From the NCBI GenBank assembly GCA_963729165.1, contig CAVSMM010000015.1, positions 184,133-224,132 of the forward strand: a stretch of 40,000 nucleotides of DNA, given 5' to 3'. The notes below the pieces were generated by a model that was not told the DNA's origin, did not search any database, and worked only from the letters and a program-made list of their open reading frames with translations. The number at the start of each line of letters is the position of its first letter. The first letter of the stretch is position 1. Below, one piece after another: positions 15,564 through 34,415 of the stretch. The stretch is from an uncultured beta proteobacterium (lineage in GTDB: Bacteria > Pseudomonadota > Gammaproteobacteria > Burkholderiales > Burkholderiaceae_F). Made by a program: the position numbers and the translations under genes.

Positions 15564-15651
15564 GTCACAGCCTTAGTCGCGCGAAGTATTGCCTTTGAGG
15601 GTCCGTATATTCATGGCTTCCCGCTTCCGATTCTGTTCGCCGAGCCATTGC

Positions 15652-15730
15652 TCATAACGGTTCAACATCAGCGGCGGCCGTAGGCAGGCGAAGCCTACCG
15701 GAGGACGTCCGCTCGATGGAGGGGTTAGAC
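15652..15730 (-). repeat. Integron attC site 7 (79 bp)
   Basis: Minus strand reads GTCTAAC (R'') ... imperfect palindrome ... GTTATGA (R'). It lies 55 nt after the stop of CDS 15786..16184. Confidence 0.7.
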
Positions 15731-15785
15731 CTCATGCCGCGCGGCGCCTGCGGACGCACGAGGTGACCGGCCGCGTGTGGTTGCA

Positions 15786-16184
15786 TCACTTTCGGTTCTC
15801 CTCGTACTGCACGGCCCCGTCGACCGGCCGTAGCCACGGCTCGCGGCGCTTGACCCAGAGCTCGTAGCTCGGTACGAGAGGAGTGGGAGCTTCTGAAAGG
15901 GCGCCGAGCTTAACCTCCGCTTCGCGATCATCGAGCGAGAACAGGTGCGACCCGCAGCGAGGACAGAAGTGCTGGCCGTGGAACTCGGATGTTTCGCCTG
16001 TGCTTTCGAACTGATGGGCAGGCCAGACCGCGTAGAACGTAAAGGCCGACCCGCTTTCTCGTCGGCAGTTTGTGCAGTGGCAGATGCCGATGCGCAGTGG
16101 CTCCCCGCGCGCGCAAATCTGCACACGCCCGCAAAGGCATTCACCCGAGAACGACTTCATGCCCGAGGGGAAAGCAGGTTGCAT
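15786..16184 (-). CDS. GFA family protein (cassette-borne)
   Basis: 132 aa. CLCGRV, CHCTNCRRESG and FCPRCGSHLF. The ATG at 16184 is 9 nt inside the cassette boundary. An alternative start is MKSFSGECLCG at 16160. Confidence 0.8.
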   Translation of the reverse strand: MQPAFPSGMKSFSGECLCGRVQICARGEPLRIGICHCTNCRRESGSAFTFYAVWPAHQFESTGETSEFHGQHFCPRCGSHLFSLDDREAEVKLGALSEAPTPLVPSYELWVKRREPWLRPVDGAVQYEENRK

Positions 16185-16187
16185 GGG

Positions 16188-16265
16188 GTCTAACGTTTGA
16201 GCTCAGCCACCTGCGCAGGCTGGCGAAGCCAGCCGTAGCAGGTCGGCAGCGGCGAAGGATTAGGC
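16188..16265 (-). repeat. Integron attC site 6 (78 bp)
   Basis: Minus strand reads GCCTAAT (R'') CCTTC GCCGCTGCCGACCTGCTACGG...GGCTGAGCTC AAAC GTTAGAC (R'). Its internal sequence is closely related to attC site 1. Confidence 0.8.
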
Positions 16266-16651
16266 GGCATTTTTCTTGGTGAGTTCAACTCGAGTGACCA
16301 GGTAAGTCGATACCCACCACGTGTTGCCACCAACATCCACAAAGCCGGCCTGGCGCTCGTTGTACGGCTTGTCGTTTGGCTCGGAAATGCTTCGCGCTCC
16401 CAACTCCAAGGCACGAGCGTAGACGCTATAACGTTGGGCACATAGACGTAGACTAAGCCGACCCAAGCTTTGATGTGCGGCGGCAACTCGCCTGCCTCGA
16501 CCCATAGCAGTGAGTCGCCGATTTTCAGGAGCGTGGGCCCACCCTCGTTTGACTCGATGAACCCGGCGTCAAATGCACCTTGGATGAATGCGGTCAGGCT
16601 GGTGGGCCCGCACAGGTAGGGCCGAACACTGCCAAACCCAACGATGAACAT
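16260..16651 (-). pseudogene. VOC (glyoxalase/bleomycin-resistance/PhnB-like) family protein, one -1 frame break
   Basis: ORF 16190..16651 reads MFIVGFGSVRPYL...IGDSLLWVEA...LVYVYVPNV. It continues in ORF 16260..16505 as SVYARALELGARSISEPNDKPYNERQAGFVDVGGNTWWVST. The break is near 16427-16433. The TAA stop lies inside the attC R'' box. Confidence 0.7.
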
Positions 16652-16666
16652 GCTTCATGGAATGAC

Positions 16667-17164
16667 TCATAGATTTCTCGACAGGTGGTGTGACGCTACT
16701 ACTTGTAGCGCCAACTCTCCGACTAGACGATCGAGAAACCGATCATGCCAGCGTCTGAAGTACGACCGACACCAAACGTCTAGCTTTTGGCGGCACGGAG
16801 CCCGCGTGAATATGCAGCGCAGCCCGCTTAGGCAGGCTAGTGAGCGGGATGGATCTGGTTCCCAAGACAGGCAAGGAGTCTTTGAGTAGATCGAACTGAA
16901 CTTCGATCGCCTCCTTTGAGTCGTGATGCCACTTGACGACAGACGCCTGTTTGCCCTTGCCGTCAGTGGCGCAGTAGCCGGCCCCGCTTTCTGAGAGTCC
17001 CAAGACAGCTTTGCTCGCGGCCGCGACTTGACATTACGAGCACGTGTTCGGCGCCTGCGAACTCGCGCTTCAGGAGACGTTGAACTCGCCTGCCGCGAAT
17101 GCTGGTCATGCCCCTCGCATAAGTCGGTGGCAAGAGACGACAAAGCATCTGCGTCGATAGGCAT
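16667..17164 (-). pseudogene. Hypothetical cassette ORF, coding-like segments spread over three frames
   Basis: MPIDADALSSLATDLCEG (frame of ORF 16667..17173), MTSIRGRRVQRLLKREFAGAEHVLV (ORF 16963..17148) and GAGYCATDGKGKQASVVKWHHDSKEAIEVQFDLLKD (ORF 16743..17003). I recognise no family. Confidence 0.3.
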
Positions 17165-17181
17165 ATTCAGCAACCTCGGAC

Positions 17182-17499
17182 TTAGGCACTCCTCTCGCGG
17201 GCAAGCAACCAGCCCATCAGAAGAAGCAGCAGCGCCAACGAGAAGACCACGATGTTCGCATCCATGCCCAGAACCGGTGGAACTCCGTCCTTGTCGCTCA
17301 GCGCGCCGCCATAGAGGGAGATTGTGGAGGCGCTAAGCCAGAAGCCACCAAAGACGCATAGTCCCAGTATTCCCGCAAGACGTACGCCGAACGCGCTATT
17401 CGCCCTGTGAAGCCAGAGGAAATACAGGGCCAGAATAGCGATGGCGGAAGTCTCGTCCCGAGGAGCCACACCATGTGCATACGCGAGTGAGGGGTCCAC
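17182..17499 (-). CDS. Small hydrophobic (about 3 TM) protein, unknown function
   Basis: 105 aa with a GTG start. Hydrophobic stretches AIAILALYFLWL, GILGLCVFGGFWLSA and IVVFSLALLLLLMGWLLA. Confidence 0.4.
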   Translation of the reverse strand: MDPSLAYAHGVAPRDETSAIAILALYFLWLHRANSAFGVRLAGILGLCVFGGFWLSASTISLYGGALSDKDGVPPVLGMDANIVVFSLALLLLLMGWLLARERSA

Positions 17500-17667
17500 T
17501 CAGCATGAAAGACGTGCGTCTCCGTCAGATCGACGAATGGCGGGAGGACTCCGTAAGATAAGTGTCGCTAAAGTCATCAAGACACGAATCCAACTAGGAT
17601 GGATTTCGCAATGCTCGTCCACAGTGACATGTCCATGTCCGGATGTGAACTGATCCGATGTGAGCGC

Positions 17668-17730
17668 CTACAACGCTTGGAGATAAGCCGGACCGCTGAA
17701 GCGGTAATCGGCTTGAACGAATTGTTAGGC
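17668..17730 (-). repeat. Integron attC site 5 (63 bp)
   Basis: Minus strand reads GCCTAAC (R'') AATTC GTTCAAGCCG...CGGCTTATCTCCAAGC GTTGTAG (R'). Confidence 0.7.
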
Positions 17731-17782
17731 CGACGCCTCTCGCGAGCGAATCCGTTCTGAACTTTTGTTCTCTGAGAACAAC

Positions 17783-17899
17783 TTATGATGGTGGGTGCTT
17801 CCAATACCCTTCCGAGACAACCTTGACGGCGCCGTCGACCACTTTGATTGCCGTCTGGTCGTCAATCGCGTATGCCGGACCGCGATGCCGCTCGCCCAT
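17783..17899 (-). CDS. Very small cassette ORF (38 aa; 44-45 aa if started at 17915 with one frame correction)
   Basis: MGERHRGPAYAIDDQTAIKVVDGAVKVVSEGYWKHPPS. High third-position GC. It is the only coding-like frame in the 305-bp cassette. Confidence 0.3.
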   Translation of the reverse strand: MGERHRGPAYAIDDQTAIKVVDGAVKVVSEGYWKHPPS

Positions 17900-17972
17900 C
17901 CTCTGCGTCGGCCATGGTGTTCTCTGGCAGATCTGGGTGGTCAAGTGCGGGAAGATCAAGAAATCAGTCGAG

Positions 17973-18025
17973 CCCTAACGTGATGTCGTCGCCGGTGACT
18001 GGAGGGCTACGACTCAACGAAGGCC
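17973..18025 (-). repeat. Degenerate attC-like site 4
   Basis: The minus strand ends ...GGCGACGAC ATCAC GTTAGGG (a good R' and spacer). The L boxes GTCGTAGCC / GGCGACGAC pair. The expected R'' (CCCTAAC) reads GGCCTTC. Confidence 0.45.
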
Positions 18026-18961
18026 TCTCCGACACGAGGGCTCATCACCATGCTTCGCGGCGCTCAGTCCCACCCAGACGGTCGCTTCCAGCGAACGCTA
18101 GATCTCTGCTACAGAACGCGGACTGCCGCATCCAGTGACACAGGTACAGGGCGTCACCGCCATTCAAACAAGTATCGGACGTCGCGCTAGCGGACCCAAG
18201 TTCCCCAGCGTTCTCTACCTATGACTGCGGCAGAGCGGTCAGTATCGACGAGCACTCCCAAAGGACTTCCAACCTAAATCGCACATCGAGGCATTGCGCG
18301 TTCTCGTCCACTGATGAACCGCCATGTCCCGGCAGGACTTCCGTGGGGATGCCCTGTACAACGCGGTGGGGATGCAGAGGACGTTGAGAGTCGGCAATCA
18401 GTTTGCCCAGCAGCATCGCACACCAGACGCGTCGCGAATGCTCGCGATCTTGATACCTGCGGATGTGAGAAGAAGTTCACGATGGCTCGGGTGCCTACGT
18501 AGATGTCCGAAGCGCAGCAGGCTTTGATTGCGTGGCATACTCGCCAGCATCAGCGGCGGTCTCGGAGCCCGGCGATGGAAGCCTGACGACGCGAAGCCTG
18601 CTATCTGCCAAAGAGCCAGAAGAAAGACCCATTCCGGACTAGCAGCGGCACGAGCACTGCGCCTTGCTTAATCAGTTGCTCGGCGACTGCTGGCGGTACG
18701 CGCAGCGTCACGCCGGACATACCCTTCCGCAAATCCGAAAGCTTGGCTGCCTATGTACGTAACGACGTATCCGAAGTATTTGCCTATCGGAGCAGTGCCG
18801 TATCGAGCGTTCAAGGCAAGCTTTTTAACAGCCTGCGAAAGAGAGCGTTGCAATGTCTGAATGCGCAGACCTCTCGGCTGCAGACGGCCAATACCTCTTG
18901 GTTGGGACCTTGCTTCAGAAGCTCTCTGGGAGACTTGCGATCATTTGCCTCTCCGCTAGGC

Positions 18962-19017
18962 GCCTAACGGCGGCTCAGCCGCGAGCGCAGCGAGTCCGCT
19001 GCAGCGTGTGGTTAGGC
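18962..19017 (-). repeat. Integron attC site 3 (56 bp)
   Basis: Minus strand reads GCCTAAC (R'') CACAC GCTGCAGCGGACTCGCTGCGCTCGCGGCTGAGCCGCC GTTAGGC (R'). R'' and R' are perfectly complementary. Confidence 0.85.
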
Positions 19018-19449
19018 GTCGCCACGCGCCGTGCCTTGCAACGGCAATTCGCTCACAGGTGCGTCAGCAACAACGCGCCACTGCTTGTCGTTGTCTTGGC
19101 GCCAGTGAACGAGGTAGTTGCCGCGATCTTGGAACGAGCTCATCCCCGGCGGGGAACTGGCGCCCGCTGTGAACCGAAGGGTGTACTTTCCTCGTTCCAC
19201 TGCTATCAAACCGCTAGCATCAACGGTTTGAGTTTTCAGCGTGAATTCCCGCTTCCCCCACGTGACTGCGTTGCGCCAGAAGTCGCGAATGGCGGTCCGG
19301 CCAACGAGCGGCGGGCTATTTGGCGGCATCTGCCACGCGTCTTCCGCAAAGATGGAAACAAGCGAATCGACGTCACCAGCAGCGTACCAACGGACTGCGT
19401 TTGCGTTGTGCCTTTCAATCGTCTGGCGCACGTCATCGAAGTTCGTCAT
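19012..19449 (-). CDS. SnoaL-like / DUF4440 (NTF2-fold) protein, cassette-borne
   Basis: Start placed at the ATG at 19447-19449, preceded by GGAG (MTNFDDVRQTIERHNANAVRWYAAGDVDSLVSIFAEDAW...). The upstream part of ORF 19012..19494 lies inside attC 2. The TAA stop lies inside the R'' box of attC 3. Confidence 0.7.
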   Translation of the reverse strand: MTNFDDVRQTIERHNANAVRWYAAGDVDSLVSIFAEDAWQMPPNSPPLVGRTAIRDFWRNAVTWGKREFTLKTQTVDASGLIAVERGKYTLRFTAGASSPPGMSSFQDRGNYLVHWRQDNDKQWRVVADAPVSELPLQGTARGDA

Positions 19450-19478
19450 GGTGTCTCCGCGGAGGGGGTAATGCGACG

Positions 19479-19538
19479 CTCTAACGTTTGACATTAACGG
19501 CCTGCCGAAGGCAGGTCCGCTTGAAGGAAGGGTTAGAG
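19479..19538 (-). repeat. Integron attC site 2 (60 bp)
   Basis: Minus strand reads CTCTAAC (R'') CCTTC CTTCAAGCGGACCTGCCTTCGGCAGGCCGTTAATGTCAAAC GTTAGAG (R'). Confidence 0.8.
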
Positions 19539-19562
19539 CGCAACACCTTCAGTTCGCGACTG

Positions 19563-20379
19563 TCAGATCTCTATGGTGACGATGTGCGCCTGAATCTTGG
19601 CGTCCACAGCCCCTCGCCCGAACCGTTGGGCCACCGCTCGGCCGCGATGTCGGTGGCTTCGCCGAGCAGCGAGGCGTTGCGCGCCTCGATCTCGTTTCGT
19701 AGTGGTGTCCCCTGGCAGTACGCGATCGCTGGGACCCGGGCAGATTCTGCGCGACTGCGCGCTGCAACCGTGGTGATTTGAGGTGACCCAGTGAGCCCGC
19801 CGTCTGCAAGATCTCGCTTGATGGTCAGAGGGTCCCAATAGCCGTGGGGTGTGCGCCGAGGAAGCGAGGCGGATCATTAGGAAACAGGGATTCGAGTGTC
19901 GTCGTGACGGTGTCCGCGAATTCGTTTTCCTTGATCCGATCCCACGTGTTGAAAATGAAAACGCCCCCCGCCCTGAGCACTCGACGTGCCTCCGAAAACG
20001 CTTTCGGCCTTTCGGGGAAGAACATGACTCCGAACTGGCACACAACCGCGTCAAACGTTTCGTCTTGGAAAGGCAGTTGCATGGCATCCGCCTGACGCCA
20101 CTCCACAGGGCGCTTCGTCCCGAGCGCGGAGGCATGATCTAACATCGGCTGATTCAGATCCGTCGCGACGATGGACACGCCTTGAGGTAACACGGATGCC
20201 AAAGCACGAGTCACGACACCTGTGCCGGCTGCAATTTCGAGCACGCGAGTAAGAGACCTCGAAGCTAGCCGATTCACCAGGTCCGCAGCGTAGGGCTCGA
20301 AGATCAGCGGAACGAGATACATTTCGTAAAGCTTGGCAATTGAGCCACTGAAGACTTTATCGGTATCAGGACTACTCAC
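19563..20379 (-). pseudogene. Class I SAM-dependent methyltransferase (cassette-borne), two -1 frame breaks
   Basis: The N-terminal 184 aa (ORF 19825..20379, GTG start after AGGAG) carry VLEIAAGTGV and the methyltransferase fold. The protein continues as RTPHGYWDPLTIKRDLADGGL...PAIAYCQGTPLRNEIEARNASLLGEATDIAA in a second frame. It ends AVAQRFGRGAVDAKIQAHIVTIEI in a third frame (tail of ORF 19563..20135). Breaks are near 19856 and 19640. Confidence 0.7.
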
Positions 20380-20410
20380 AGTGTTTGCCGCTCCTGCGAT
20401 GCCGTTGCAC

Positions 20411-20482
20411 TCCTAACGTTGGAGCTCAGCCGCGTGCGAAGGCCGCAGGCCGTAGCACGTCGGCTGGAGCGAAGGGTTGGGC
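20411..20482 (-). repeat. Integron attC site 1 (72 bp)
   Basis: Minus strand reads GCCCAAC (R'') CCTTC GCTCCAGCCGACGTGCTACGG...GGCTGAGCTC CAAC GTTAGGA (R'). It starts 6 nt after the stop of the GNAT gene. Confidence 0.8.
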
Positions 20483-20488
20483 GGCTGT

Positions 20489-21292
20489 CTACTTTGTGAA
20501 ACGGTGTCCGTCAGATGTCGCGATTCCGCAAATGAGGTCGGAGACCAATCGGAGACCGCAAGACTCGACCATTCTTCGCGATGGATCGTTATCTGAAGCG
20601 ACGAGCTCGTAGATTGCATTGGCCCCCTGCGTCTGTATCGCCAGACAGATCGCTCTTGCATTGATGCGACTACCGAGTCGGCGCCCGCGTTGTTGCTCCG
20701 CGACTGCAACGAGGCCAACCCATGCGGTTTTCTCATGCGCGCTGTACCGATTGTGAGGCATGTACGCGTGAGCACACGCGACAATTCGGCCGGCAGAATC
20801 GCGTATGTACGGCGTCGCAGCTGAGCCCAGATCGCCCCTCAGCATGCGTGCTGAGAACGGGGCAATTGAGTTGTCAGCCATGAACTTCTGAATCTCACGG
20901 GCGCACTCGTTCGAGTCGTCGGGTGCAAGGACGTGCTCGTTAAGATCAGCTGGGAGCGGTTCCTCAACGAACGCCCGTGATGGTGCCAGCGCGTCTTGCG
21001 CGTCAGCGAGAAACACGTTCCAAGTGTGTAGTTGATATCCGAGAGCCTCAAGTCGATCGGAGATCGCCTTGCGCTCCGCAGCTGGGCGCAATCGAAAGCC
21101 GAATACCTTGTCTCGGCGAAGTGCCGCCTCGATTGCTTGCCAACCCAACAAATTCTGATCGTCTGTTCCACAGAATCTTCCGGGATGACAACATCCGGCG
21201 GTGGTGTACAGCCAGTCGTACAGCTCCTCCGCTCGTCGTTGCAACGCGACTTGAATTTCGGTTCCGAAGTACGTCACGATTCCCTCCGTCAT
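20489..21292 (-). CDS. GNAT family N-acetyltransferase (first cassette)
   Basis: ORF 20489..21301. Likely ATG at 21290-21292 (MTEGIVTYFG...). Acetyl-CoA motif VAVAEQQRGRRLGSRINARAI. Confidence 0.7.
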   Translation of the reverse strand: MTEGIVTYFGTEIQVALQRRAEELYDWLYTTAGCCHPGRFCGTDDQNLLGWQAIEAALRRDKVFGFRLRPAAERKAISDRLEALGYQLHTWNVFLADAQDALAPSRAFVEEPLPADLNEHVLAPDDSNECAREIQKFMADNSIAPFSARMLRGDLGSAATPYIRDSAGRIVACAHAYMPHNRYSAHEKTAWVGLVAVAEQQRGRRLGSRINARAICLAIQTQGANAIYELVASDNDPSRRMVESCGLRLVSDLICGIATSDGHRFTK

Positions 21293-21333
21293 TAAGAGCA
21301 ACGGCCACGTCGCTGCCTAGCCGCGCTAAAGCC

Positions 21334-21351
21334 GCCCAACGTGTTTTAGGT
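21334..21351 (-). promoter_or_regulatory. attI simple site (integron primary recombination site)
   Basis: Minus strand reads ACCTAAAACAC GTTGGGC. This closely resembles the class 1 attI1 core CCCTAAAACAAA GTTAGGC (recalled from memory). The GTTRRRY box sits between intI and the first cassette. Confidence 0.65.
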
Positions 21352-21443
21352 CGCACGATTCTGCTCCTAAATGCGGCAACTGCGGCATAACACGGACGGC
21401 CGTTCGTCGCCAGACCCGCACCACGCCTTGCTTTCGAGGCCAA

Positions 21444-21463
21444 TACTGTATAAAAATACAGTA
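21444..21463 (+). promoter_or_regulatory. LexA (SOS) box overlapping the intI promoter region
   Basis: TACTGTATAAAAATACAGTA is a perfect palindromic CTGT-N8-ACAG and matches the E. coli-type consensus TACTGTATATATATACAGTA at 18/20 positions. It ends 12 nt before the intI ATG. A possible -35 TTGCTT lies upstream and a TATAAA/TAAAAA -10 lies inside the box. Confidence 0.85.
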
Positions 21464-21475
21464 TTAACAAATCCG

Positions 21476-22570
21476 ATGAAAAGCGCAGCTCCACGTCCCG
21501 CATTGCAATCAGCGCGTCTGCTGGATCAGGTGCGGGAACGGATTCGCTATTGCCACTACAGCTTGCGGACGGAGCAAAGCTACATTTATTGGATTCGCTT
21601 CTACGTCCGCTTTTCCGGTTTGCGGCATCCGCGGGCGATGGGTGTGCGGGAGGTTGAGGCGTTTCTGACGCATCTTGCCAGTGAGCGCAAGGTTTCGCCG
21701 GCCACGCATCGGCAGGCACTTTCGGCGCTGCTTTTTCTTTACCGTCAGGTACTGGACCAGCAGTTGCCATGGATGCAGGAGATCGGGCGGCCGCAAGCCC
21801 GCCAACGGCTGCCGGTCGTTTTGTCGCGTGAAGAAGTCGCGCGTTTATTGCCGCAGGTCGATTCGAGTTACCAGCTGATGGCTCGGCTGCTGTACGGCAG
21901 CGGGTTGCGATTGATGGAGTGCCTTCGCCTGCGTATCAAGGATCTCGATTTCGATCGGCGCGTGATCGTGGTGCGCGATGGCAAGGGCGGCAAGGATCGT
22001 GTAGTGATGCTGCCGGATGCGTTGCACGATGCATTGCGCAGTCAACTGGCCACGGCCCGCGCGGTGTGGGCGCAGGATCATGCGGCCAAATGTGCGGGGG
22101 TTCAGCTTCCATATGCGCTCAGTCGCAAATTTCCGCGCGCAGGCGAATCGTGGTCGTGGTTCTGGTTGTGGCCGGCGGAGGGGCTGTCGGTTGATCCGCG
22201 CTCGGATATTGAGCGGCGCCATCATGTTCACGAAGACGGAGTCGGCCGGGCTTTGGCACGCGCAGTCACTCGCGCGGGGATCGCAAAAAAGGTGACGGCA
22301 CATACGCTGCGCCATTCGTTCGCTACACATCTTCTCGAATCGGGCGTCGACATCCGGCGTGTGCAGGAGTTGCTCGGTCATGTGGATGTATCGACCACGA
22401 TGATCTACACGCATGTGATGAAAGGTGCTGCAGCCGGCGTGTCTTCTCCGCTGGATTCGCTCGGGCCCTCGATCGGCCCGCTGCATTGCTCGGAGCAATT
22501 GAGTGATTCGCTATGCATGCCCTGGATACATCGCTTAGCTACAGCAGCGCCGGTGGCGGTTTACCGCTAA
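21476..22570 (+). CDS. intI: Integron integrase IntI (tyrosine recombinase)
   Basis: [36 protein letters not shown]... is collinear with IntI1 as I recall it. It contains the IntI-specific insertion [40 protein letters not shown] and the catalytic [12 protein letters not shown]...LLGH...TMIYTHV. It is about 30 aa longer at the C-terminus than IntI1. Confidence 0.95.
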
Positions 22571-22586
22571 TGCCCGGCGCTCCCGC

Positions 22587-23324
22587 ATGCCGCTCTCTTC
22601 CAAAAGTTTTCTATCTGCGTTGGGTGCACGGGTGTGGCGCGCCAACTCGGACGCGGGTGAGTCCAACGTTCGAGCAGTGCCGACGCGCTTTGTCGCGCTG
22701 GACAAGCTGCTGCCGAACGGAGGTTGGCCGCAGCGCACATTGATCGAGTTGCTGGTGCCGTGCGGTGTTGGAGAGATGCGCGTGCTGATGCCGGTGCTGG
22801 CACCGCTAATGCGCGCGCGCCAGACGGTGCTGTGGGTCGAGCCGCCGCACATTCCTTATCCGCGAGCGCTGATCGCGCATGGCGCGACGCTCAAACAATT
22901 GCTGGTGGTGCGCGCGCGTGATCGGGGAGAGCGGCTGTGGACGATCGAGCAGGCGCTTAAGAGCGGTGCCGCTGCAGCGGTCGTCGCGTGGCTGCCTGAA
23001 GACAATGCACGCCTGACGTCGTTTCAAACGCTGCGCCGCTTGCAGCTGGCGGCGCAAAGCATGAAGCGCGATCCGGGCCTGGTGTTTTTGCTGCGCTCGC
23101 CGGCGGCGCGCACCGCTGCGTCACCGGCGCCGCTGCGTATCGAGCTCACTGCCTGCGAGCGCGGAGTTGCGCTCGATATTTTCAAACGGCGCGGCATGCC
23201 GGTGCATGCGATGGCGCAGCTTGCGCTGCCGGGCCCTGCAGCACGCTGCTTCGAAGCGCTGCTCGAAGAAGATCACGCTACAGACACTGCAACCGATGCT
23301 GTGGATTGCCGTTTGTCTGCCTGA
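22587..23324 (+). CDS. imuA: ImuA (SulA/RecA-like translesion-synthesis accessory protein)
   Basis: 245 aa. VWRAN...FVALDKLLPNGGWPQRTLIELLVPCGVGEMRVLMPVLAPL is typical of ImuA. It sits first in an imuA-imuB-dnaE2 arrangement. Confidence 0.85.
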   Translation: MPLSSKSFLSALGARVWRANSDAGESNVRAVPTRFVALDKLLPNGGWPQRTLIELLVPCGVGEMRVLMPVLAPLMRARQTVLWVEPPHIPYPRALIAHGATLKQLLVVRARDRGERLWTIEQALKSGAAAAVVAWLPEDNARLTSFQTLRRLQLAAQSMKRDPGLVFLLRSPAARTAASPAPLRIELTACERGVALDIFKRRGMPVHAMAQLALPGPAARCFEALLEEDHATDTATDAVDCRLSA

Positions 23325-24786
23325 GCTGCCGCTCGAAGTGGCGGTAGTCGACGCAGTGCCGCTGGCGGTGTGCGACTCATCGCATGTGCTGCTTGCCAAC
23401 CGCAGCGCACGTGAGGTCGGAGTGCAGCTGCAGATGAGGCGTGCGACCGCGCTGGCGATCTGTCCGCATCTGCAGATCAAGGCGCGCGCGCTCGTGCAGG
23501 AAAATCATTCGCTGCAAGCGATCGCCGCATGGGCACAGCGCTTTACACCGAACGTCGCGTTGGTGCCGCCGTGTGAGGAATCCGACGCCGATCTTGCATC
23601 GGGACTGCTGCTCGAAATTTCCGGCAGCGTGAAGCTCTTCAACGGCCATCCGAACATTGTCAGAAATTTGCGCGTGGGCCTGGTGCGCCAGGGGCACACG
23701 GTGCAGATGGCGCTGGCGCCGGTGCCGCAGGCGGCATGGATGCTGGCGCGCGCAGCACGTGATGGCCAGGTACCGCAGGTCAATGAAGTGAGCGAGCTGC
23801 CGGCGGCGCTCGCCGATCTGCCGGTGTGGCTGCTCGGGCCGGGCCGGCCGCATTGGGATGCGCTGCGCGGCATCGGCGTGACGCGCATTGCCGATCTGCG
23901 ACAGCTTCCGCGCAGCGGGATCGCACGGCGCTTTTCTGCGCGTCTGCTTGATGAGCTGGATCGCGCGTTGGGGCGCAAGCCCGATCCGCGCGTGTGGTTC
24001 GTCGCGCCGCCGGTATTCGAAGCCAAGCTCGAGCTGTTGGCGCGTGTCGATCATGCCGAGGCACTGCTGTTCGCGGCGCGCCGGATGATCGTGCAGATGA
24101 CCGGCTGGCTGGCGGCGCGTCATGCGGCAACGCGCACGATCGAATTCACGCTGGTGCACGAAGACCGCGATCCGTCGCCGCTGGTGGTGCATCTGGCCGA
24201 TGCCTCCAATGACGAAGAGCGGATGACGGCGCTGCTGCGTGAGCTGCTCGGCCGCACGCAACTCGCTGCACCGGTGTACGAGCTGCATCTGCGCTGCGCG
24301 CAGATCGTGCCGTCGCAGTATTCGCATGGAGAATTGTTTGCGACCGCGCGCGGCGAGCAGGAAGGGTTGCTGCGTCTGATCGAACGCTTGCAGGCGCGCC
24401 TTGGGCCGACCGCAGTGGTACAGCTCGAGCCGCGCGATGATCACCGCCCCGAGCATGCATTTCGCGAAGTGCCGATCGACCGCGCGAGTGCATCACGTTC
24501 GTCCGATGTTGATGGGTTCGATAACAACAGCGCACCGCGTCCACTCTGGCTGTTGCCCGAGCCGATACCGCTATTGGAACATCAGCATCGTCCGGTCTAC
24601 GGCACACCGCTGACATTGATCAGCGGGCCGGAGCGGATCGAAAGCGGCTGGTGGGATGGGCAATGGGCCGAGCGCGATTACTTCATCGCGCGCGACGAGC
24701 AGCATGCGTGGCTATGGATTTTTCGGCCGCGCGCGCCTGATCCTGCGAGCCGCGACCGCTGGTATCTGCACGGAAAGTTCGGATGA
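23296..24786 (+). CDS. imuB: ImuB (Y-family polymerase-like, catalytically inactive adaptor)
   Basis: I start it at MLWIAVCLPELPLEVA, the ATG at 23296 within ORF 23167..24786. It overlaps the imuA end by 29 nt and ends in ATGA overlapping the dnaE2 start. Confidence 0.85.
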   Translation: MLWIAVCLPELPLEVAVVDAVPLAVCDSSHVLLANRSAREVGVQLQMRRATALAICPHLQIKARALVQENHSLQAIAAWAQRFTPNVALVPPCEESDADLASGLLLEISGSVKLFNGHPNIVRNLRVGLVRQGHTVQMALAPVPQAAWMLARAARDGQVPQVNEVSELPAALADLPVWLLGPGRPHWDALRGIGVTRIADLRQLPRSGIARRFSARLLDELDRALGRKPDPRVWFVAPPVFEAKLELLARVDHAEALLFAARRMIVQMTGWLAARHAATRTIEFTLVHEDRDPSPLVVHLADASNDEERMTALLRELLGRTQLAAPVYELHLRCAQIVPSQYSHGELFATARGEQEGLLRLIERLQARLGPTAVVQLEPRDDHRPEHAFREVPIDRASASRSSDVDGFDNNSAPRPLWLLPEPIPLLEHQHRPVYGTPLTLISGPERIESGWWDGQWAERDYFIARDEQHAWLWIFRPRAPDPASRDRWYLHGKFG

Positions 24787-27700
24787 TCGGCAACCTCCCA
24801 GGCTATGCCGAGCTGCACTGCGTAACGAACTTCAGTTTTCTGCGCGGCGCTTCGCACGGCGAAGAACTGGTCGAGCGCGCCGCAGCGCTCGGCTACGCGG
24901 CATTGGCGATCACAGACGAATGCTCGCTTGCCGGCGTTGTGCGCGCGCACGTCGAAGCCAAGGAACATGGGCTGCATCTGATCATCGGAGCCGAAATCAA
25001 TCTGCTGACTGCAGGCGGCGATCCGTACGCAAAACTGGTGCTGCTGGCGACCGATCGTGCTGCTTACGGCAACCTGTCTGAATTGATCACGCTGGCGCGC
25101 ACGCGCGCCGACAAGGGAAGCTATCGCGCGTACGCCTCCGATCTCGAAGGCAAAGCAGCAGGGCATCCGCATCTGCAGCATCTGCCCGGTTGCCTGGCTT
25201 TGCTGATTCCAGCGAGCGACGCTTCGTTTGAACAGCTGTTCGGGCAGGCGATGTGGCTGAAGACCTGGTTTCCAGAGCGCGCGCTGGATCGCGGTGGAAA
25301 ATCTTTTGCGCGCCACCGATGGTCCGCTGATCGAGCGCATCGAGCGCGTGGGCCATCTGACCGGCGTGCCGCTGGTCGCCGCCGGTGATGTGCACATGCA
25401 TCTGCGCTCGCGCAAGCCGGTGCTCGATGTGGCTGCCGCGATCAGGCTCGGAAAAACAGTGGCCGAATGCGGCTTCGCGCTGGCATCGAACGCCGAGCAG
25501 TATCTGCGGCCGCGCGTGCGGCTGGCGCAGCTGTACGCGCCCGAATGGCTCGATGAGACGCTGAAGATCGCGGCGCGTTGCCAGTTTTCGCTGAACGAGT
25601 TGCGCTACGAGTATCCGGAAGAGATCGTGCCGCCCGGCGCGACCGCGACCAGCCATCTGCGTGCGCTGACCGAAGCCGGCGCTTCGCTATCGGTTTCCGG
25701 AAGGTGTGCCGCCCGCGGTGCGCGCGCAAATCGAAAAAGAGCTCGCGCTGGTTGCCGAGCTGAAGTACGAAGCGTTCTTTCTGACGATCGAGGACGTGGT
25801 GCGCTTTGCGCGCTCGCAAGGCATTTTGTGCCAGGGCCGCGGCTCGGCTGCCAACTCGGTGGTCTGTTATTGCCTGCGCATCACCGAGGTCGATCCGCGC
25901 CGCTGCAATGTTCTGTTCGAGCGCTTCATCAGCCGCGAGCGTAACGAGCCGCCGGATATCGATGTCGACTTCGAGCATCAGCGGCGCGAAGAGGTCATTC
26001 AATATATCTACGGCAAATACGGCCGCGATCGCGCGGCCCTGGCCGCCACCGTCATCTGCTATCGCTCGCGCAGCGTGCTGCGCGATGTGGGCAAGGCGCT
26101 CGGATTCGATCCGCAGCGTATCGACCAGGTCGCCAAAAACCACCAGTGGTGGGATAGCGGCCAACGCCACAGCAAGGGAATGATCGAGGCGGGCTTCGAT
26201 CCCGACAGCTTTTCGATTCGCCAGTGGTTAACGATCGCCGACGAGCTGCGCGGCTTTCCGCGGCATCTGTCGCAGCATGTCGGCGGCTTCGTGATTGCGC
26301 GCACCAAGCTGTCGCGCCTGGTGCCGATCGAAAACGCCGCGATGGAAGATCGTTGCGTCATCCAATGGGACAAGGACGATCTCGAATCGCTCGGCCTGTT
26401 GAAGGTCGACGTGCTGGCGCTCGGCATGCTGTCGGCTACGCGCCGTTCGCTCGAATTCATCGCGCAAAAGCTCGGCCGGCCGTTTGCGATGGGCGATATC
26501 GAGGATGACGACACGCCCACCTACGACATGATCTGCGCGGCCGACACGATCGGCACGTTCCAGATCGAATCGCGCGCGCAGATGACGATGCTGCCGCGCC
26601 TGAAGCCGCGCTGCTATTACGACCTGGTGGTCGAAGTCGCGATCGTGCGGCCGGGGCCGATTCAGGGCGGCATGGTGCATCCGTATCTGCGCCGGCGCGA
26701 CGGCAAGGAAGCCGGTCGAATATCCGAGCAAGGAAATCGAATCGGTGCTCGAACGAACGCTCGGCGTTCCGATCTTTCAGGAGCAGGTGATGCAGCTCGC
26801 GATCGTCGCCGCCGATTACACGCCGGGCGAAGCCGATCAGCTGCGCCGCTCGATGGCGGCATGGAAACGCAAGGGCGGGCTCGGGCCGCATAAAGAACGA
26901 CTGATTTCGCGCATGACGGCCAAGGGATACGCGCTCGAATATGCCGAGCGCATCTTCAAGCAGATCGAAGGATTCGGCGAGTACGGATTTCCGGAAAGTC
27001 ACGCGGCGAGCTTTGCGTTGCTGGCGTATGTGTCGTGCTGGATCAAGCGTCATCACCCCGATGCATTTCTGGCCGGGCTGCTGAACAGCCAGCCGATGGG
27101 TTTTTATGCGCCCGCGCAACTGGTGCAGGACGCGCGCCGGCATGGAGTCGAAGTGCGTGCCGTCGACGTGACGATCAGTCAGGTCGAATCGACGCTCGAG
27201 CCGCCTGCAGAATGCAGCAGAAACACAGGCGGTGCGGCTGGGATTGAATCGCATCAGCGGGCTTAAGGAAACGTCGATCAAGCGCATCGTCGAGGCCCGC
27301 ATCGAACGCGAATTCGACAATGTCGAAGATCTGGCGATGCGCGCGCAGCTGAATTCATTCGAGCTCGAAGCGCTCGCCGCCAGTGGAGCGTTGGCCACGC
27401 TCGCCGGCCACCGCCATCAGGCCGGCTGGGAAGCGCTCGGCGTCGAGACGCGGCGTACGCAGATGCTGAAGCCGGCGCGCTTTCCGGAGCCGCGGATCGA
27501 GCTGGCGCCACCCACCGAAGGAGCCGATATCGTCGCCGATTACGAGCGGCTCGGCCTGACGCTCGGCCGTCATCCGCTGGCTCTGCTGCGGCCGCGGCTG
27601 GCGAAAATGAAAATGCGAACTTCGATCGAGCTGCAAACAACGCCGAGCGGCCGGATCGCACGTGCGTGCGGCATCGTCACGCATCGGCAGCGGCCGCAGA

Positions 27701-27933
27701 CCGCCAAGGGCTCGGTGTTCGTGACGATCGAAGACGAAACGGGGCCGGTCAATATCATTTTCTGGAACGACATCTTCGAGCGCGAACGCAAGGTCGTCGT
27801 CGGCTCGACGCTGCTCGGCGTGCAGGGCGTATGGCAATCCGAAGCCGGCGTCATGCATCTGCTGGCTAAGCGCGCGACCGATTACTCGCGCTTGCTCGGA
27901 AGGCTTGCCACTTCGTCGCGCGACTTTCACTGA
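24783..27933 (+). pseudogene. dnaE2: Error-prone DNA polymerase DnaE2 (ImuC), split by four +1 frame changes
   Basis: Five consecutive ORFs (24783..25388, 25294..25944, 25706..26893, 26745..27266, 27232..27933) are collinear pieces of a single protein in start phases 0,1,2,0,1. The pieces read PHP domain AELHCVTNFSFLRGAS, then [21 protein letters not shown], then FQIESRAQM, then [15 protein letters not shown], ending ...SSRDFH. Junctions are near 25285, 25680, 26712 and 27205. The total of 3151 nt minus 4 gives 1049 codons. Confidence 0.85.
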
Positions 27934-27974
27934 GCTGCCATACAATCGCCGCTCAATCGAGTGGGAGACACTTC

Positions 27975-30389
27975 GTGCGCATTGCCGGCTTCTTAGCCTT
28001 GCTGGTCGCTGTCACGCTGCTGGCACTCGGTCTCTGGTACCGACAGGCCAGTCTGCCGATCCATGAAGGAACGTTCATGGTCTCCGGATTGCAGCAGGCG
28101 GTGCGCATCGATCGTGATGATGATCACGGCATTCCGAACATCGTCGCGGCGAACGAACGAGATGCGACGTTTGCATTGGGTTATGTGCATGCGCAGGACC
28201 GCCTATGGCAGATGGAGATGAATCGCCGTATCGCCGCGGGGCGTCTGGCTGAAGTGCTTGGTGAGCCGGCGCTCGATACCGACAAGTTTCTGCGCACGAT
28301 CGGCATCGCACGTACTGCGCAAAGCATTTATCAGAATCTGGATGCCGAGCATCGTGACTTGCTCGATGCGTATGCGGCGGGTGTCAACGCGTATCTGAGC
28401 AAGCGACGGTGGGCCATTGCCGCCGGAGTTTTATCTGACGCGCGCGCCGAAGCCCGAGCCGTGGACGCCGGCGGATTCGATCGGCTGGTCGCTGATGATG
28501 GCGTGGGATCTCGGCGCGCTATTCGTATTCGCGCGAGCTGCGGCGCCTGCAATTGGCGCAGCGGTTTTCGGTGGCGGAGATCAATGATTTTTATCCGCCG
28601 TATCCGGGCGACTCTGCGCCGGCGACGGCGGACTATGCCGAGATGTATCGATTGCTCGGCATCAAGGCAACGTCGTTGTCCGCGTTGGACGCGCCCGCGT
28701 TCGGTTTCGGTGACGGTGAAGGACTCGGCTCGAACAACTGGGTCGTATCGGGCAAGCGCACTGTCAGCGGCAAGCCGATGCTGGCCAACGATCCGCATCT
28801 CGGACTGACCACGCCTTCGGTTTGGTATTTCGCTGGCCTTCAGGCACCGGGCCTGAAAGTGATGGGCGCGACGTTGCCCGGAGTTCCCGGTGTTGTTCTC
28901 GGCCGCAACGATCGCATCGCGTGGGCGTTCACCAATACCGGCGTCGATCAGCAGGATCTTTATCTGGAGCGCATCAATCCCGAAGCAGCCCGACGAATAT
29001 CAAACGCCGGAAGGCTGGGCGCGCTTTGTGACCCGCATCGAGCGCATCCGCGTCAAGAGGCGGTGACGATGTCGAATTGACGGTGCGCGAGACGCGGCAC
29101 GGCCCGGTGATCAGCGGACTTGCCAGCGTTGAAAAAGGGTTCAAGCAGCCGCAGTTTGCGCTCGCATTGCGCTGGTCTGCGCTTGAGCCCAACGACACGA
29201 CGATCGCGGCGATTCGCGCGCTGAACAAAGCACGCAATATCGACCAGGCGGAGCGAGCGCTGGCGGAGTTTCAGATCGTCACTCAGTCGGCGTTGATCGC
29301 GGATGTCGACGGCAAGATCGGGATGGTCGTGACCGGACGCATACCGATGCGTGATCGAGCCAACGATTTGCATGGACTCGTCCCCGCACCAGGATGGGAG
29401 GCGCGCTACGACTGGCGCGGCTACCTGTCCACCGAGCAAGCACCGAGGATGCGCGATCCTGCCAACGGATTGATCGTCACGGCAAATCACAAGGTGGTGT
29501 CGTCGAAGTATGCGCACCATCTGACTTACGACTGGTTCCTGCCGTATCGCGCGCAGCGTGTCGAACAACTGCTTGAAGCGCGCGGCAAGCACGACGTCAG
29601 CACGTTCAAGACGATCCAGGCCGACGTCACTTCGTTCGCGGCGCGCGACATGTTTGCAATGTTGAAGGACGTACAGCCGCAGACCGAAGCCGGGCGTCAC
29701 GCGCTCGCGCGACTGGCCGCGTGGGACTTCCAGATGAAGCGCGATACGCCCGAGCCGTTGATCTATCACGCATGGATGCGCGAGCTCAAGCATCGGATTT
29801 TTGCCGATGACCTCGGCGCGTTGACCGACGATTTCGTCGACCAGGCCGAGCTCACTTCGACGTTGCTGTACGTGTTGTCCGGCCGCGCGCAGGCGCGCGA
29901 CTGGTGCGACGACCGATCGACGGAGCAGCGCTTCGAGACATGTCGCTTGCTGGCGGGCGAAGCGCTCGACGCATCGGTCACGCAGCTGACCCAGGCTTCG
30001 GGCCGCGACGTGGCCGGGTCTGCGATGGGGCGACATGCATCGCGCGGCTGCCGAACATCGGCCGATGTCGAGCGTGCCCGTGCTTCGCCGCCTGTTCGAA
30101 CTGCGCATCGCGTACCCCGGAGATACGCACACGATTAACGTCGGTGCGCTGTCACACCGCGCCGAAGCTCCGTTCTCTACGCGGCATACCGCCACCTTGC
30201 GCGCGATATACGACCTCGCTGCGCTCGAATCGAATTCCGTATGGGTGGGTTCAAGCGGGCAGGTCGGCAATCCTTTTTCCGACCTTTACGGATCGATGCA
30301 GCCGCTGTGGCGCGATGTGTCTGTATCTGCCGATGCGTCCGCCACCGGCGCGCGATGCGATGACGCTGGAACTGAAGCCGCGACGCTAA
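27975..30389 (+). pseudogene. Penicillin acylase (Ntn-hydrolase, PvdQ/QuiP-like) family protein, six +1 frame changes
   Basis: N-terminal TM/signal MRIAGFLALLVAVTLLALGLW, GYVHAQDRLWQMEM, and the beta-subunit nucleophile context GSNNWVVSG...ANDPHL. The pieces lie in ORFs 27975.., an unlisted frame (GPLPPEFYLTRAPKPEPWTPADSIGWSLMMAWDLG), 28553.., an unlisted frame (PDEYQTPEGWARFVTRIERIRVK), 29077.., 30035.. and the tail of 29904..30389. Confidence 0.8.
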
Positions 30390-30501
30390 TCGCATCGGAT
30401 TGCGCCGCAGCGGGTTAACCCGTTGCTCGCGGCGTTTGACGCTGCATGCCGGATGTAGGCATCATGTCCGGCTTTCCGCACACCTCTCTAGGAGAACGCC
30501 G

Positions 30502-32082
30502 ATGCGTCTCGCCATCGCCGCATTTGTCGCAGCACTTTCTATTGCACCGGTTGTCGATGCCAAGACCTTGCGCTGGGCTAGCCAGGGCGACATCCTGACG
30601 ATGGACCCGCACGCGCAAAACGAAGGGCTGAATAACACCGCCAATTCTTATATCTACGAGCCACTCGTCACCTACAACGAGAAGTTCGAAGTCGTGCCGG
30701 CGCTTTCAACCGACTGGAAGCAGGAGACGCCGCTGATCTGGCGCTTCAACCTGCGCCAGGGCGTCAAGTTTCACGACGGCTCGCCTTTGACCGCGTCCGA
30801 TGTCGTGTTCTCGATCGATCGCGCGATGCAGCCGACGTCGAACTTCCGTCAGTACACCGTCGGCGTTCAACGCGCCCACGCGGTTGATGACAATACGGTG
30901 ATCATCTACACGACGGTGCCGAATCCGGTGTTGCTGCGGCAATTGACCGAGCTGCGGATCGTCAACAAGGGGTGGGCCGAGAAGAACAAAGTCGTTGCGC
31001 CTCAGAACTTCGTGCAGAAGGAAGAAACCTACGCTGCGCGCAATGCCAACGGCACCGGCCCGTTCATGCTGAAGTCGCGCGAGGTCGATATCAAGACGGT
31101 GTTCGTCGTCAATCCGAACTGGTGGGGAGCAAAGACGAAGAAGGGCAACGTTACCGAAGTGATTTACACGCCGATCAAATCGGACTCGACGCGCACCGCG
31201 GCATTGCTGTCCGGAGAGATCGATTTTCTGCTCGATCCAGTTCCGCAGGACATCGCGCGCCTGAAGCAGACACCTTCGATCAAGGTCGATCGAAGGTGCG
31301 GAAAACCGCACGATCTTCATCGGCATGGACCAGTTTCGCGACGAGCTGCAGTACAGCGACGTCAAGGGCAAGAATCCGTTCAAGGACTTGCGCGTTCGTC
31401 AGGCGCTGTATCACGCGATCGACATCGAGGCGATCAAGAAGGCGGTGATGCGCGGCTCGTCGGATCCGACCGGCGCGATCATTCAGCGTGCAGTGAATGG
31501 CTGGATACCGGCGGCGCACGAGCGCCTGCCGTACGACGAGAAAAAGGCGAAGGAGCTGCTGACCGCGGCCGGCTATCCGAACGGCTTTTCGGTGACGCTC
31601 GACTGCCCGAACAACCGCTACATCAACGACGAAGAGATCTGCAAGGCACTGGTTTCGATGTGGGCGAAGCTCGGGATCAAGGTGTCATTGAACGCAATGC
31701 CGCGCGCAACTTACTTTCCGAAGATTCAGAAGCACGACACGTCGCTTTATTTGCTCGGCTGGGGTGTGCCGACGTTCGATGCGCTGTACTCGCTGCAATC
31801 GCTGCCGATGACGGTCGGCAAGGGCGGAGACGGCAACTTCAATCTGGGACGCGTCAGCAATGCCGAGTTCGACAAGCTCGTCGAAGTCAATCAAGGGCGA
31901 GGTCGACACCAAGAAGCGCAATCAGATGATCGCCGATGCGTTGATGCTGCACAACAAGCAGGTGATGCATATTCCGTTGCATAACCAGGTTATTCCGTGG
32001 GCGATGCGCAAGAACGTGACCGTAGTGCATCGGGCCGATAACCGACTCGAGGTGCAGTGGGTCGAATCGACTAGCGGGATGA
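30502..32082 (+). pseudogene. ABC transporter substrate-binding protein, family 5 (peptide/nickel type), copy 1; at least 2 frame changes
   Basis: AGGAGA RBS then the ATG at 30502. Signal peptide MRLAIAAFVAALSIAPVVDA. The pieces lie in ORFs 30400.., 31325.. and 31860.. (junctions near 31283 and 31880). The 3' end is uncertain: a frame-2 TAG at 32072 or a frame-1 TGA at 32080. The frame-0 reading runs into the next gene. Confidence 0.75.
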
Positions 32083-32096
32083 AGCAGTGCAAAGGG

Positions 32097-32128
32097 TCGG
32101 ACACTGAAGAGCGTCCGGCCTTTTTTTT
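32097..32128 (+). terminator. Weak hairpin plus T8 tract between the binding-protein and permease genes (possible intra-operon attenuator)
   Basis: CGGAC...GTCCG 5-bp stem, 10-nt loop, then GCC TTTTTTTT (32121-32128). Confidence 0.25.
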
Positions 32129-32149
32129 GCCCTGCTCTAATATCGGTCC

Positions 32150-33134
32150 ATGGCTGCCTTTATCGTTCGCCGCCTGTTGCAAGCGATTCTCGTCATGTTG
32201 GTGGTGGCGCTGATCGCCTTTCTGCTGTTTCAGTATGTCGGTGATCCGGTCTCGCAGATGCTCGGCCAGGACGCGACGCCCGAGGACCGCACTCGGCTGC
32301 GCGGGGATCTCGGCCTCGACCAGCCGTTCTACATGCAATTCGCGCACTTCATCGGCAACGCGATACAGGGCGATTTCGGCATCAGCCTGCGTCAGGGCCG
32401 AGCCGTGTCAACATTGATCAAGGAACGTTTACCGGCAACGCTCGAACTTGCCTTCGCGGCGGCGTTGATCGCGATCGTGGTTGGTATTCCGATGGGCGTT
32501 TACACAGCGCTGCGGAAAGATTCGTGGTTCTCGCATTTTCTGCTCGCGGTGTCGCTGGTGGGAATCTCGCTTGCCGACTTTCCTGATCGGGATCCTGCTG
32601 ATCCTCGTATTCGCGGTGATGCTTGGTGTGCTGCCGTCCTACGGGCGCGGCGATACCGTGCAGCTTGGCTGGTGGAGTACCGGCTTGCTGACGACGACCG
32701 GCTGGAAACACCTGGTCCTGCCCGCAATCACGCTGTGCCTGTTCCAGCTGACGCTGATCATGCGTCTGGTTCGGTCGGAGATGATGGAGGTGCTGCGCAC
32801 CGACTACATCAAGTTTGCCCGCGCTCGCGGCTTGACGGATCGTGCGGTGCACTTTGGTCACGCACTGAAGAACACGCTGGTTCCGGTCATCACGATCACC
32901 GGGTTGCAGCTGGGCGGAATCATTGCGTTCGCGATCGTCACCGAGACGGTATTCCAGTGGCCCGGCATGGGATTGCTGTTCATTCAGTCGGTGCAGTTCG
33001 CCGACATCCCGGTGATGGCGGCATATTTGTGCCTGATCGCATTGGTGTTCGTGCTGATCAATCTAATCGTCGATTTGCTGTACTTTGCTGTTGACCCGCG
33101 GCTGCGCATCGACCGCACCGCCGCGGCACATTGA
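32150..33134 (+). pseudogene. ABC transporter permease (DppB/OppB-like), one +1 frame change
   Basis: ORF 32150.. (MAAFIVRRLLQAILVMLVVALIAF...VSLVGISL) continues in ORF 32481..33134 (PTFLIGILLILVFAVMLGVLPSYG...). The junction is near 32570. Confidence 0.8.
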
Positions 33135-34398: not shown

Positions 34399-34415
34399 CC
34401 ATCCAAGGAAGCTCC

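Follow-up and report, generated by a model that had tools for sequence, protein, structure and literature searches.

Can a single SOS operator govern both the shuffling of integron cassettes and error-prone DNA synthesis? SOS-induced integron recombination and SOS error-prone synthesis, the two textbook examples of stress-induced variation in bacteria, have been regarded as distinct members of the LexA regulon. Promoters of integron integrases are reportedly repressed by LexA, and imuA-imuB-dnaE2 is said to be an SOS cassette that also occurs in the form lexA2-imuA-imuB-dnaE2. The question arises from a stretch of 40,000 nucleotides (nt) of an uncultured beta proteobacterium (GenBank assembly GCA_963729165.1, contig CAVSMM010000015.1, positions 184,133 to 224,132), referred to here as the window, in which the integron integrase gene intI is followed on the same strand by imuA, imuB and dnaE2, the genes of a mutasome. 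An initial annotation, made from the letters alone, had proposed one LexA operator for this four-gene unit. The conserved junction, the lack of a second box or promoter, and natural deletion alleles make this the best-supported reading, with co-transcription as its predicted step. We consider it probable (about 0.7) that one LexA-repressed promoter yields one intI-imuA-imuB-dnaE2 transcript, so that recombination and translesion mutagenesis would be induced together.

Gene order, operator and promoter

The unit comprises the following features, in window coordinates; lengths of proteins are in amino acids (aa).

21444-21463, plus strand: predicted LexA (SOS) operator, TACTGTATAAAAATACAGTA, unique in the window
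21476-22570, plus strand: intI, integron integrase of 364 aa (TIGR02249 and NF011946)
22571-22586, plus strand: spacer from the intI stop to the imuA start, 16 nt, no Shine-Dalgarno sequence
22587-23324, plus strand: imuA, 245 aa (NF033429)
23296-24786, plus strand: imuB, with the Pfam IMS domain
24783-27933, plus strand: dnaE2 (imuC), error-prone polymerase, in five open reading frame (ORF) pieces with four +1 frame shifts

The intI gene starts with the ATG at 21476, 12 nt downstream of the LexA box, and stops with the TAA at 22568-22570, after which imuA starts with the ATG at 22587. The imuB ATG (23296) lies within imuA, whose stop codon ends at 23324, giving an overlap of 29 nt, and the imuB stop and the dnaE2 start overlap in the ATGA at 24783-24786. 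The box, the intI/imuA gap and both overlaps had been placed at these positions before, and all were borne out on re-reading the sequence. Thus the four genes have the attributes of a single operon: they share a strand, their junctions are short or overlapping, and no terminator or promoter was called between them. The layout of the gene set given in the initial annotation stands as well, but the four frame breaks in dnaE2, to which we return below, had been overlooked.

The identity of each product is supported by family models. IntI scored 461.6 bits with TIGR02249 (cut-off 265) and 451.5 bits with NF011946 (cut-off 435), and the XerC and XerD models scored far under their cut-offs. The invariant columns of alignment A1 include the catalytic residues R145, K170, H276, R279, H302 and Y311, and the IntI-specific segment is present. 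ImuA is a member of its family by the NF033429 equivalog model (180.5 bits, cut-off 150). ImuB has the IMS domain of Pfam (38.5 bits, cut-off 23.2), and none of the NCBIfam models matched it; its N-terminus, MLWIAVCLPELPLEV, has no DxD motif and, by inspection, LLLEISGS takes the place of SxDE. ImuB is therefore classed, from its motifs, as a Y-family paralogue without the catalytic acidic motifs ("dead"). The dnaE2 pieces match PHP, DNA_pol3_alpha, finger, HHH_6 and OB domains and fit the error-prone polymerase model far better than DnaE models. An exact-sequence look-up of the IntI and ImuA of the window matched no record.

The box TACTGTATAAAAATACAGTA agrees with the 20-nt E. coli-type consensus TACTGTATATATATACAGTA at 18 of 20 positions. 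When that consensus was searched with up to three mismatches, 21444-21463 was the sole match in 40 kb (expected 0.00), which upholds the earlier statement that this is the only strong LexA box. It has the CTGT-N8-ACAG palindrome and the A+T-rich spacer of the Beta- and Gammaproteobacteria type of operator. The loose 16-mer CTGT-N8-ACAG, with at most one mismatch, is not enriched in the window (7 found versus 9.7 expected); matches nearby are a G+C-rich one in the first cassette (20633) and a one-mismatch one in imuB (23460). The latter coincides with a conserved palindrome, GATCTGTCCGCATCTGCAGATC, inside imuB at 23457-23478 (local conservation 0.94), which is probably conserved coding sequence only. 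Between the box and imuA (21464-22586) no CTGT-N8-ACAG site was found at one mismatch or fewer, and the imu cassette has no box of its own directly upstream.

A conserved -35-like hexamer, TTGCTT, is present at 21428-21433, and its TTG is invariant in 15 of 15 sequences of alignment A2, including the distant L011, L013 and L014 (related contigs are referred to by L numbers). It is a candidate -35 element of the integrase promoter, Pint. The operator is located between this TTG and the start codon and would overlap the likely -10 element, TATAAA at 21449-21454; LexA binding and damage induction at 21444-21463 are accordingly predictions from position and similarity. Among 19 related contigs that cover the box, with and without intI, it is identical in 18. 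None of its 20 columns is variable, compared with 10-15 of about 20 in the 20-nt blocks on either side. This invariance, with the autoregulatory-type box before lexA in L011 and L014, lends indirect support to LexA binding at the operator.

A strict sigma-70 scan of 20500-28500 called no promoter, and a terminator scan of the same region found no terminator-like site at the intI/imuA junction; the number of terminator-like sites overall (11, with 6.5 +/- 2.5 expected) was not above chance. The scans thus agree with the earlier claim that the intI 3' end and the junction hold neither signal. The RNA fold of the junction showed no unusual structure (z = -0.37).

Conservation of the intI-imuA junction

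Is this adjacency peculiar to the window? The intI/imuA junction is spanned by 13 contigs including the window, always with a spacer of 15-17 nt. The 12 further contigs (L001, L002, L003, L006, L029, L038, L089, L090, L091, L094, L095 and L097; 80-91% nucleotide identity) were obtained from JGI, ENA and two GTDB genome bins, and represent different samples, centres and assemblers. Homologues of IntI at 85-91% identity have a common clade-specific C-terminal tail and are found on contigs with the order intI-16 nt-imuA-imuB-dnaE2.

The initial annotation had suggested searching genomes for intI with imuA downstream. Our genome scan used an IntI profile, one genome per species and the 80 closest IntI loci, so that its lineage count is a lower bound. 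Two of these loci have the layout of the window (L029 and L038), three have variants of it (L011, L013 and L014), and within 6 kb downstream of the other 75 there is no imu gene. Scanning metagenomes with ImuA brought in 11 more contigs. The ratio of nonsynonymous to synonymous substitution rates (dN/dS) is 0.13-0.14 for intI, 0.19-0.29 for imuA, 0.17-0.18 for imuB and 0.07 for the N-terminal part of dnaE2, values that indicate purifying selection on all four genes.

The C-terminal extension of IntI, about 35 aa long (22440-22570), is specific to this clade, most IntI proteins being without it. Its last 12 codons lie past the position of the stop codon in L011 and L014, and the extension may have arisen by read-through into former intergenic sequence. 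Conservation within intI is lowest in the 3' tail at 22448-22535, with 0.74-0.81 identity versus 0.94 at the promoter and box, and across the intI-bearing contigs no conserved island that would hint at an internal promoter was found in this tail.

Natural alleles without intI

Which promoter, then, do the imu genes use? The most direct answer comes from relatives that have lost the integrase. In 7 of the 20 related contigs intI is deleted in frame; five (L087, L088, L092, L093 and L096) came from the ImuA scan, and two, the 270-kb contig L098 and L099, were reached via DnaE2 fragments. In each, codons 1-13 of intI run directly into its final three (21476-21514 joined to 22556-22570), giving a 16-codon ORF and leaving only the last 9-12 nt of the intI 3' end. 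The deletion junction, with the microhomology GCG, is common to all seven, and all seven keep the attI side, the -35 TTG, an identical LexA box and the 16-nt spacer before imuA. The imu cassette of these relatives accordingly has a box of its own, about 80 nt upstream of imuA. The 16-codon remnant is open in 7 of 7 haplotypes, with a peptide sequence that varies, and the contigs still carry cassettes and attC sites. Since IntI proteins without any link to imu genes have N-termini homologous to the 13 codons of the remnant, these contigs are deletion derivatives and not ancestors.

In the deletion alleles imuA (five contigs) and imuB (L098) are under purifying selection (dN/dS 0.18-0.24). Because the deletion has removed almost the whole of intI and the cassettes face the opposite way, imuABC of these alleles would be transcribed only from the promoter at the LexA box; that imuA and imuB are still selected likewise points to expression from it. 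The operator is invariant also where intI is missing, which argues for selection on the box that is independent of intI. The simplest reading is that box and promoter serve imuABC in both types of allele, and that transcription in the window would reach imuA through intI.

The deletion alleles as a single clade were considered and rejected: on imuA they are interleaved with intI-bearing contigs, and imuA of L093 is 95.5% identical to that of the intI-bearing L029. This distribution suggests recombination between lineages or recurrent deletion.

Relatives with other gene orders

Other versions of the unit occur in more distant relatives. In L011 and L014, whose IntI proteins are 67-69% identical to that of the window, a full lexA (TIGR00498, 213 bits) is situated directly downstream of intI, between it and imuA (7033-7723 in L011 and 6997-7702 in L014). 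Integrase, SOS repressor and mutasome here form one gene cluster. A second box, TACTGTATACATTGACAGTA, precedes lexA and overlaps the intI stop (…YCIH, stop). It follows that the LexA of this lineage uses CTGT-N8-ACAG and that an imu unit parted from Pint has its own operator. The presence of a second box where lexA intervenes fits the rule that the imu cassette is LexA-regulated (PMC3323433).

In L013 and L100 intI is followed, after a spacer of 7 nt, by imuB...dnaE2, and the sole box is upstream of intI. The L100 locus (8001-16596) reads intI-imuB-radical SAM-DUF4130/UDG-dnaE2 with all genes intact, a DnaE2 of 1078 aa and the box TACTGTAGAAAAATACAGTA upstream of intI; it is an ImuA-less variant of the mutasome fused to the integrase. 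There are, in all, at least four layouts: intI-imuA-imuB-dnaE2, intI-lexA-imuA-imuB-dnaE2, intI-imuB-dnaE2 and intI-imuB-radical SAM-UDG-dnaE2. The intI-proximal boxes of L011, L013, L014 and L100 are the positional homologues of the window's box. As this box and the -35 element correspond in position across the contigs, the operator is the integrase's own, and it is the imu cassette that has lost its operator.

How did the arrangement of the window arise? One hypothesis is that lexA was deleted from an L011-like ancestor. The only trace of such an event would be CTGGATACAT at 22523-22532, which resembles a LexA half-site; its likeness to CTGTATACAT is not significant (p = 0.27), and it is not conserved within the clade. 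A tblastn search of the intI tail and spacer with the LexA proteins of L011 and L014 found no lexA remnant. Given the non-significant resemblance and the lack of a remnant, an origin by lexA deletion stays hypothetical. ImuB of the window clade is 35-37% identical to that of the L011/L013/L014/L100 group, within which identity is 67-78%, and in a neighbour-joining tree (no bootstrap) the imu-linked IntI fall inside one larger clade that also holds unlinked IntI. The linkage may be ancestral, with later replacement of the cassette, or it may have arisen more than once.

Frame breaks in dnaE2

In the window dnaE2 is divided into five pieces in successive +1 frames, with breaks near 25281, 25683 and 26711 and a fourth inside 27207-27234. 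When four single bases are removed, a DnaE2 of 1048 aa results that scores 1498.9 bits with NF004225 (cut-off 939) and covers model positions 3-1047 of 1047. The first three breaks are window-specific insertions of 1 nt relative to L001, L029 and L038. The fourth falls in a short hypervariable linker (27207-27234) after VESTLEPP, which is +1 out of frame in the window, in L029 (about 11800-11830), in L038 and in the P0206 contig (L099), the linker sequences differing. All four appear to be long-read assemblies. In two proteins derived from short reads, P0121 (98% identical) and P0122, the frame stays open across this region, the linkers being 7 and 11 aa long. A break common to four sequences is not explained by random error; it may reflect an artefact of the consensus where the length is polymorphic, or the gene may truly be split there.

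Frame breaks cluster at 25200-36100 of the window, and the segments at 1-8.4 kb, 21.4-24.8 kb and 36-39.5 kb are clean. The penicillin amidase gene (27975-30389) is in four pieces and each of the two SBP_bac_5 genes (30400-31984 and 34540-36013) in two; the amidase and solute-binding genes are largely intact in the syntenic L099. L029 and L038 have different private indels, some of them in intI, imuA and imuB. Because the downstream genes are broken in the same manner yet are largely intact in L099, because indels are private to single contigs, and because the corrected polymerase matches its model from end to end, most of the dnaE2 breaks are probably assembly errors, and 25200-36100 looks like a locally poor consensus of a long-read assembly.

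Proposed mechanism and alternative explanations

We propose the following sequence of events. In an undamaged cell LexA would occupy 21444-21463, over the -10 element of Pint, and block transcription. Upon DNA damage, RecA-stimulated self-cleavage of LexA would free Pint, and a single transcript would run through intI, the 16-nt spacer, imuA, imuB and dnaE2, so that cassette recombination and error-prone synthesis would be induced jointly. The imu cassette, having no operator of its own, would depend on that of the integrase. Both the position of the transcription start and the co-transcription of the genes are predicted from the arrangement of these signals. The imuA start always lies 15-17 nt after an upstream stop codon in the clade; imuA lacks a Shine-Dalgarno sequence and, in the window, starts 16 nt past the stop, and its translation may be coupled to that of the ORF upstream. 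The spacing and the open 16-codon remnant of the deletion alleles are compatible with such coupling. A TAATG at 22568-22572 overlaps the intI stop, and its ATG is out of frame with imuA.

Several observations weigh against this scheme. The dnaE2 gene is frame-broken here, and one break is shared with other long-read assemblies, so that the polymerase in the genome of the window may not be intact. The strict sigma-70 scan missed even the presumed Pint, whose spacing from the -35 element to TATAAA is only 15 nt. Weak terminator-like hairpins occur inside intI (21825-21843) and near the end of imuA (23156-23175). Finally, no recognisable ribosome-binding site precedes intI or imuA in the window clade; GGAGG precedes intI in L011, L014 and L100, and also imuA in L011 and L014.

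The main question then is whether imuABC could be expressed mainly from an unrecognised, non-LexA promoter in the intI 3' end or the spacer, in which case the box would be for intI only and the adjacency mere packing. As Pint itself went uncalled, the negative scan is weak evidence against a promoter inside intI, and other weak promoters would have escaped it too; moreover, the last 35 nt or so of intI and the spacer are fairly conserved (0.83-0.88), and the tail holds the half-site-like CTGGATACAT. However, the alleles without the intI interior keep a selected imuA, a selected imuB (L098) and an invariant box, and so have no need of a promoter in intI; the tail is where intI is conserved least, the half-site is neither significant nor shared by the clade, and the imu cassette is reportedly LexA-regulated wherever it is present (PMC3323433). 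An internal promoter is thus unlikely. A second alternative is that the locus is a decaying relic, an eroded former intI/lexA-imuABC neighbourhood in which dnaE2 is a pseudogene and intI is being lost. The frame breaks, among them the linker break common to L029, L038 and the P0206 contig, would fit such decay, as would the deletion of intI in 7 of 20 relatives and the apparent loss of lexA and imuA in L013. Against it, three of the four breaks are single-base insertions specific to the window, unrelated genes at 28-36 kb are broken alike and mostly intact in L099, L029 and L038 differ in their private indels, P0121 and P0122 read through the linker, dN/dS is 0.07-0.29 across the four genes, and the frame-corrected DnaE2 fits its family model throughout. 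We regard decay as very improbable.

An assembly chimera at the intI-imuA join would be in keeping with the signs of error-prone assembly in the window, with its many frame breaks at 25-36 kb, but it is rejected because the same join, with its 15-17-nt spacer, recurs in 12 independent contigs from different samples, centres and assemblers. A bolder reading is that the linkage itself is selected, a notion implied by the term evolvability module in the initial annotation, with IntI and the mutasome working together beyond co-regulation and the fused operon being an adaptation for stress-induced variation. This idea draws on the finding that related IntI (66-69% identical) stand upstream of two deeply different imu types (ImuB 35-37% identical), in at least four layouts, and we hold it to be unlikely. 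If it were true, the mutasome might, for example, supply the DNA synthesis by which single-stranded attC x attI intermediates are resolved, or might mutagenise newly shuffled cassettes.

Relation to described systems

Clusters of attC sites without an integrase are reportedly known as CALINs, and the integrase-less relatives correspond to these. Unlike random decay products, however, they share one precise in-frame deletion that kept the attI side, promoter, operator, 16-codon ORF and spacing.

The gene intI is commonly controlled by LexA via E. coli-like sites (Cambray et al. 2011, PMC3108266), in a paper that makes no mention of imuA or dnaE2. As in the LexA-repressed intI promoters described, an E. 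coli-type box lies over the promoter just before the start codon, intI diverges from attI and the array, and the box is conserved in position. The described operators control intI alone, whereas here the imu mutasome follows with no operator, promoter call or terminator of its own, and the operator stays invariant in relatives that lack intI.

In Caulobacter, dnaE2 shares its transcript with imuA and imuB (Galhardo et al. 2005, via the review PMC9578287), and, in any genome that has it, the imu cassette is under LexA regulation (PMC3323433). The cassette of the window resembles the described ones in gene content and order, overlapping junctions, a dead Y-family ImuB and predicted LexA control, and L011 and L014 resemble the lexA-led form down to its own box. 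The usual box is directly before the first gene, but in the window the nearest box is 1.1 kb upstream, before intI, from which it appears that the cassette now relies on the integrase's operator, its own having been lost.

The only published hint of an association between integrons and imuABC that we found is in the Vibrionaceae, where the presence of the imu cassette correlates with the chromosome on which the superintegron resides (Sanchez-Alberola et al. 2012, PMC3323433). That correlation is at the level of genomes and was attributed to a single reorganisation event; it involves neither adjacency nor a shared operator. A full-text literature search returned no paper on intI-imu adjacency or a shared operator, in line with the supposition that the arrangement had not been described. 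The components were already known, and so was their regulation; what is new is the fusion into one unit, the lost operator of the cassette and the intI-deletion alleles found in nature.

Two systems of variation appear to be wired behind one operator, clade-wide in soil bacteria and in several structural versions, and sister lineages that use the same operator for the mutasome alone, without intI, provide a natural control. The locus offers a system for asking how an operon comes to give up its operator in favour of a neighbour's. Is integrase expression that is tied to a mutasome tolerated or costly, and do the two functions cooperate? Although the hosts are uncultured, the operator is E. coli-like, and tests in E. 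coli should be feasible for the promoter, for natural alleles of both kinds and for translational coupling of imuA.

The integron and its surroundings

The remaining features of the integron and the region next to it are as follows.

21334-21443: attI side and promoter region, with the core GTTGGGC (minus strand, 21334-21340) at the cassette/attI boundary
20489-21301, minus strand: first cassette ORF, a GNAT acetyltransferase (Pfam Acetyltransf_1, 36.6 bits), with the attC at 20411-20485 directly after it
15655-15731, 16188-16268, 19479-19541 and 20411-20485: attC-like sites (nhmmer E-values 8e-6 to 8e-22)
17677-17732 and 18973-19018: weaker attC candidates
14247-21340, minus strand: cassette array of about 7 kb, from the 5S rRNA gene to attI, with cassettes reading away from intI
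8788-14246, plus strand: complete rrn operon (Rfam), with 16S at 8788-10320, tRNA-Ile, tRNA-Ala, 23S at 10861-14005 and 5S at 14132-14246

The attC sites were detected with a profile built from three repeated sites of this window, together with folding. They have YCTAAC...GTTRRRY cores (R''/R') and fold into imperfect hairpins (z -2.2 to -3.2), and the GCCTAAC/GT core is conserved in relatives, in which attC sites are likewise found upstream of intI. The locus has all parts of a complete integron, namely intI, an adjacent attI and divergent cassettes bounded by attC sites. The ORF-poor region at 8.7-14.2 kb was considered as part of the array and rejected, since Rfam shows an rrn operon there; the array is therefore only about 7 kb long. 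The 16S gene of the window is only 91-92% identical to Burkholderiales and Rhodocyclales copies (plasmid collection), and 'uncultured beta proteobacterium' is the label of the nearest genome bins. The integron is chromosomal and sedentary, is laid out canonically and belongs to an uncultured soil betaproteobacterium. It is like other such integrons in its chromosomal position by an rrn operon and metabolic genes, its related attC sites and its persistence throughout a clade (about 80-91% nucleotide identity).

Downstream of dnaE2 the next gene on the same strand, the penicillin amidase gene, follows after 41 nt (27934-27974) with no terminator-like site, and the transcription unit may extend beyond dnaE2. 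Peptide ABC-transporter genes lie downstream of the amidase. The amidase and ABC-transporter neighbours are found in L099 too, and in L098 the amidase also comes after dnaE2. On the cassette side of the integron, L013 has an IS110-family transposase (4077-5438).

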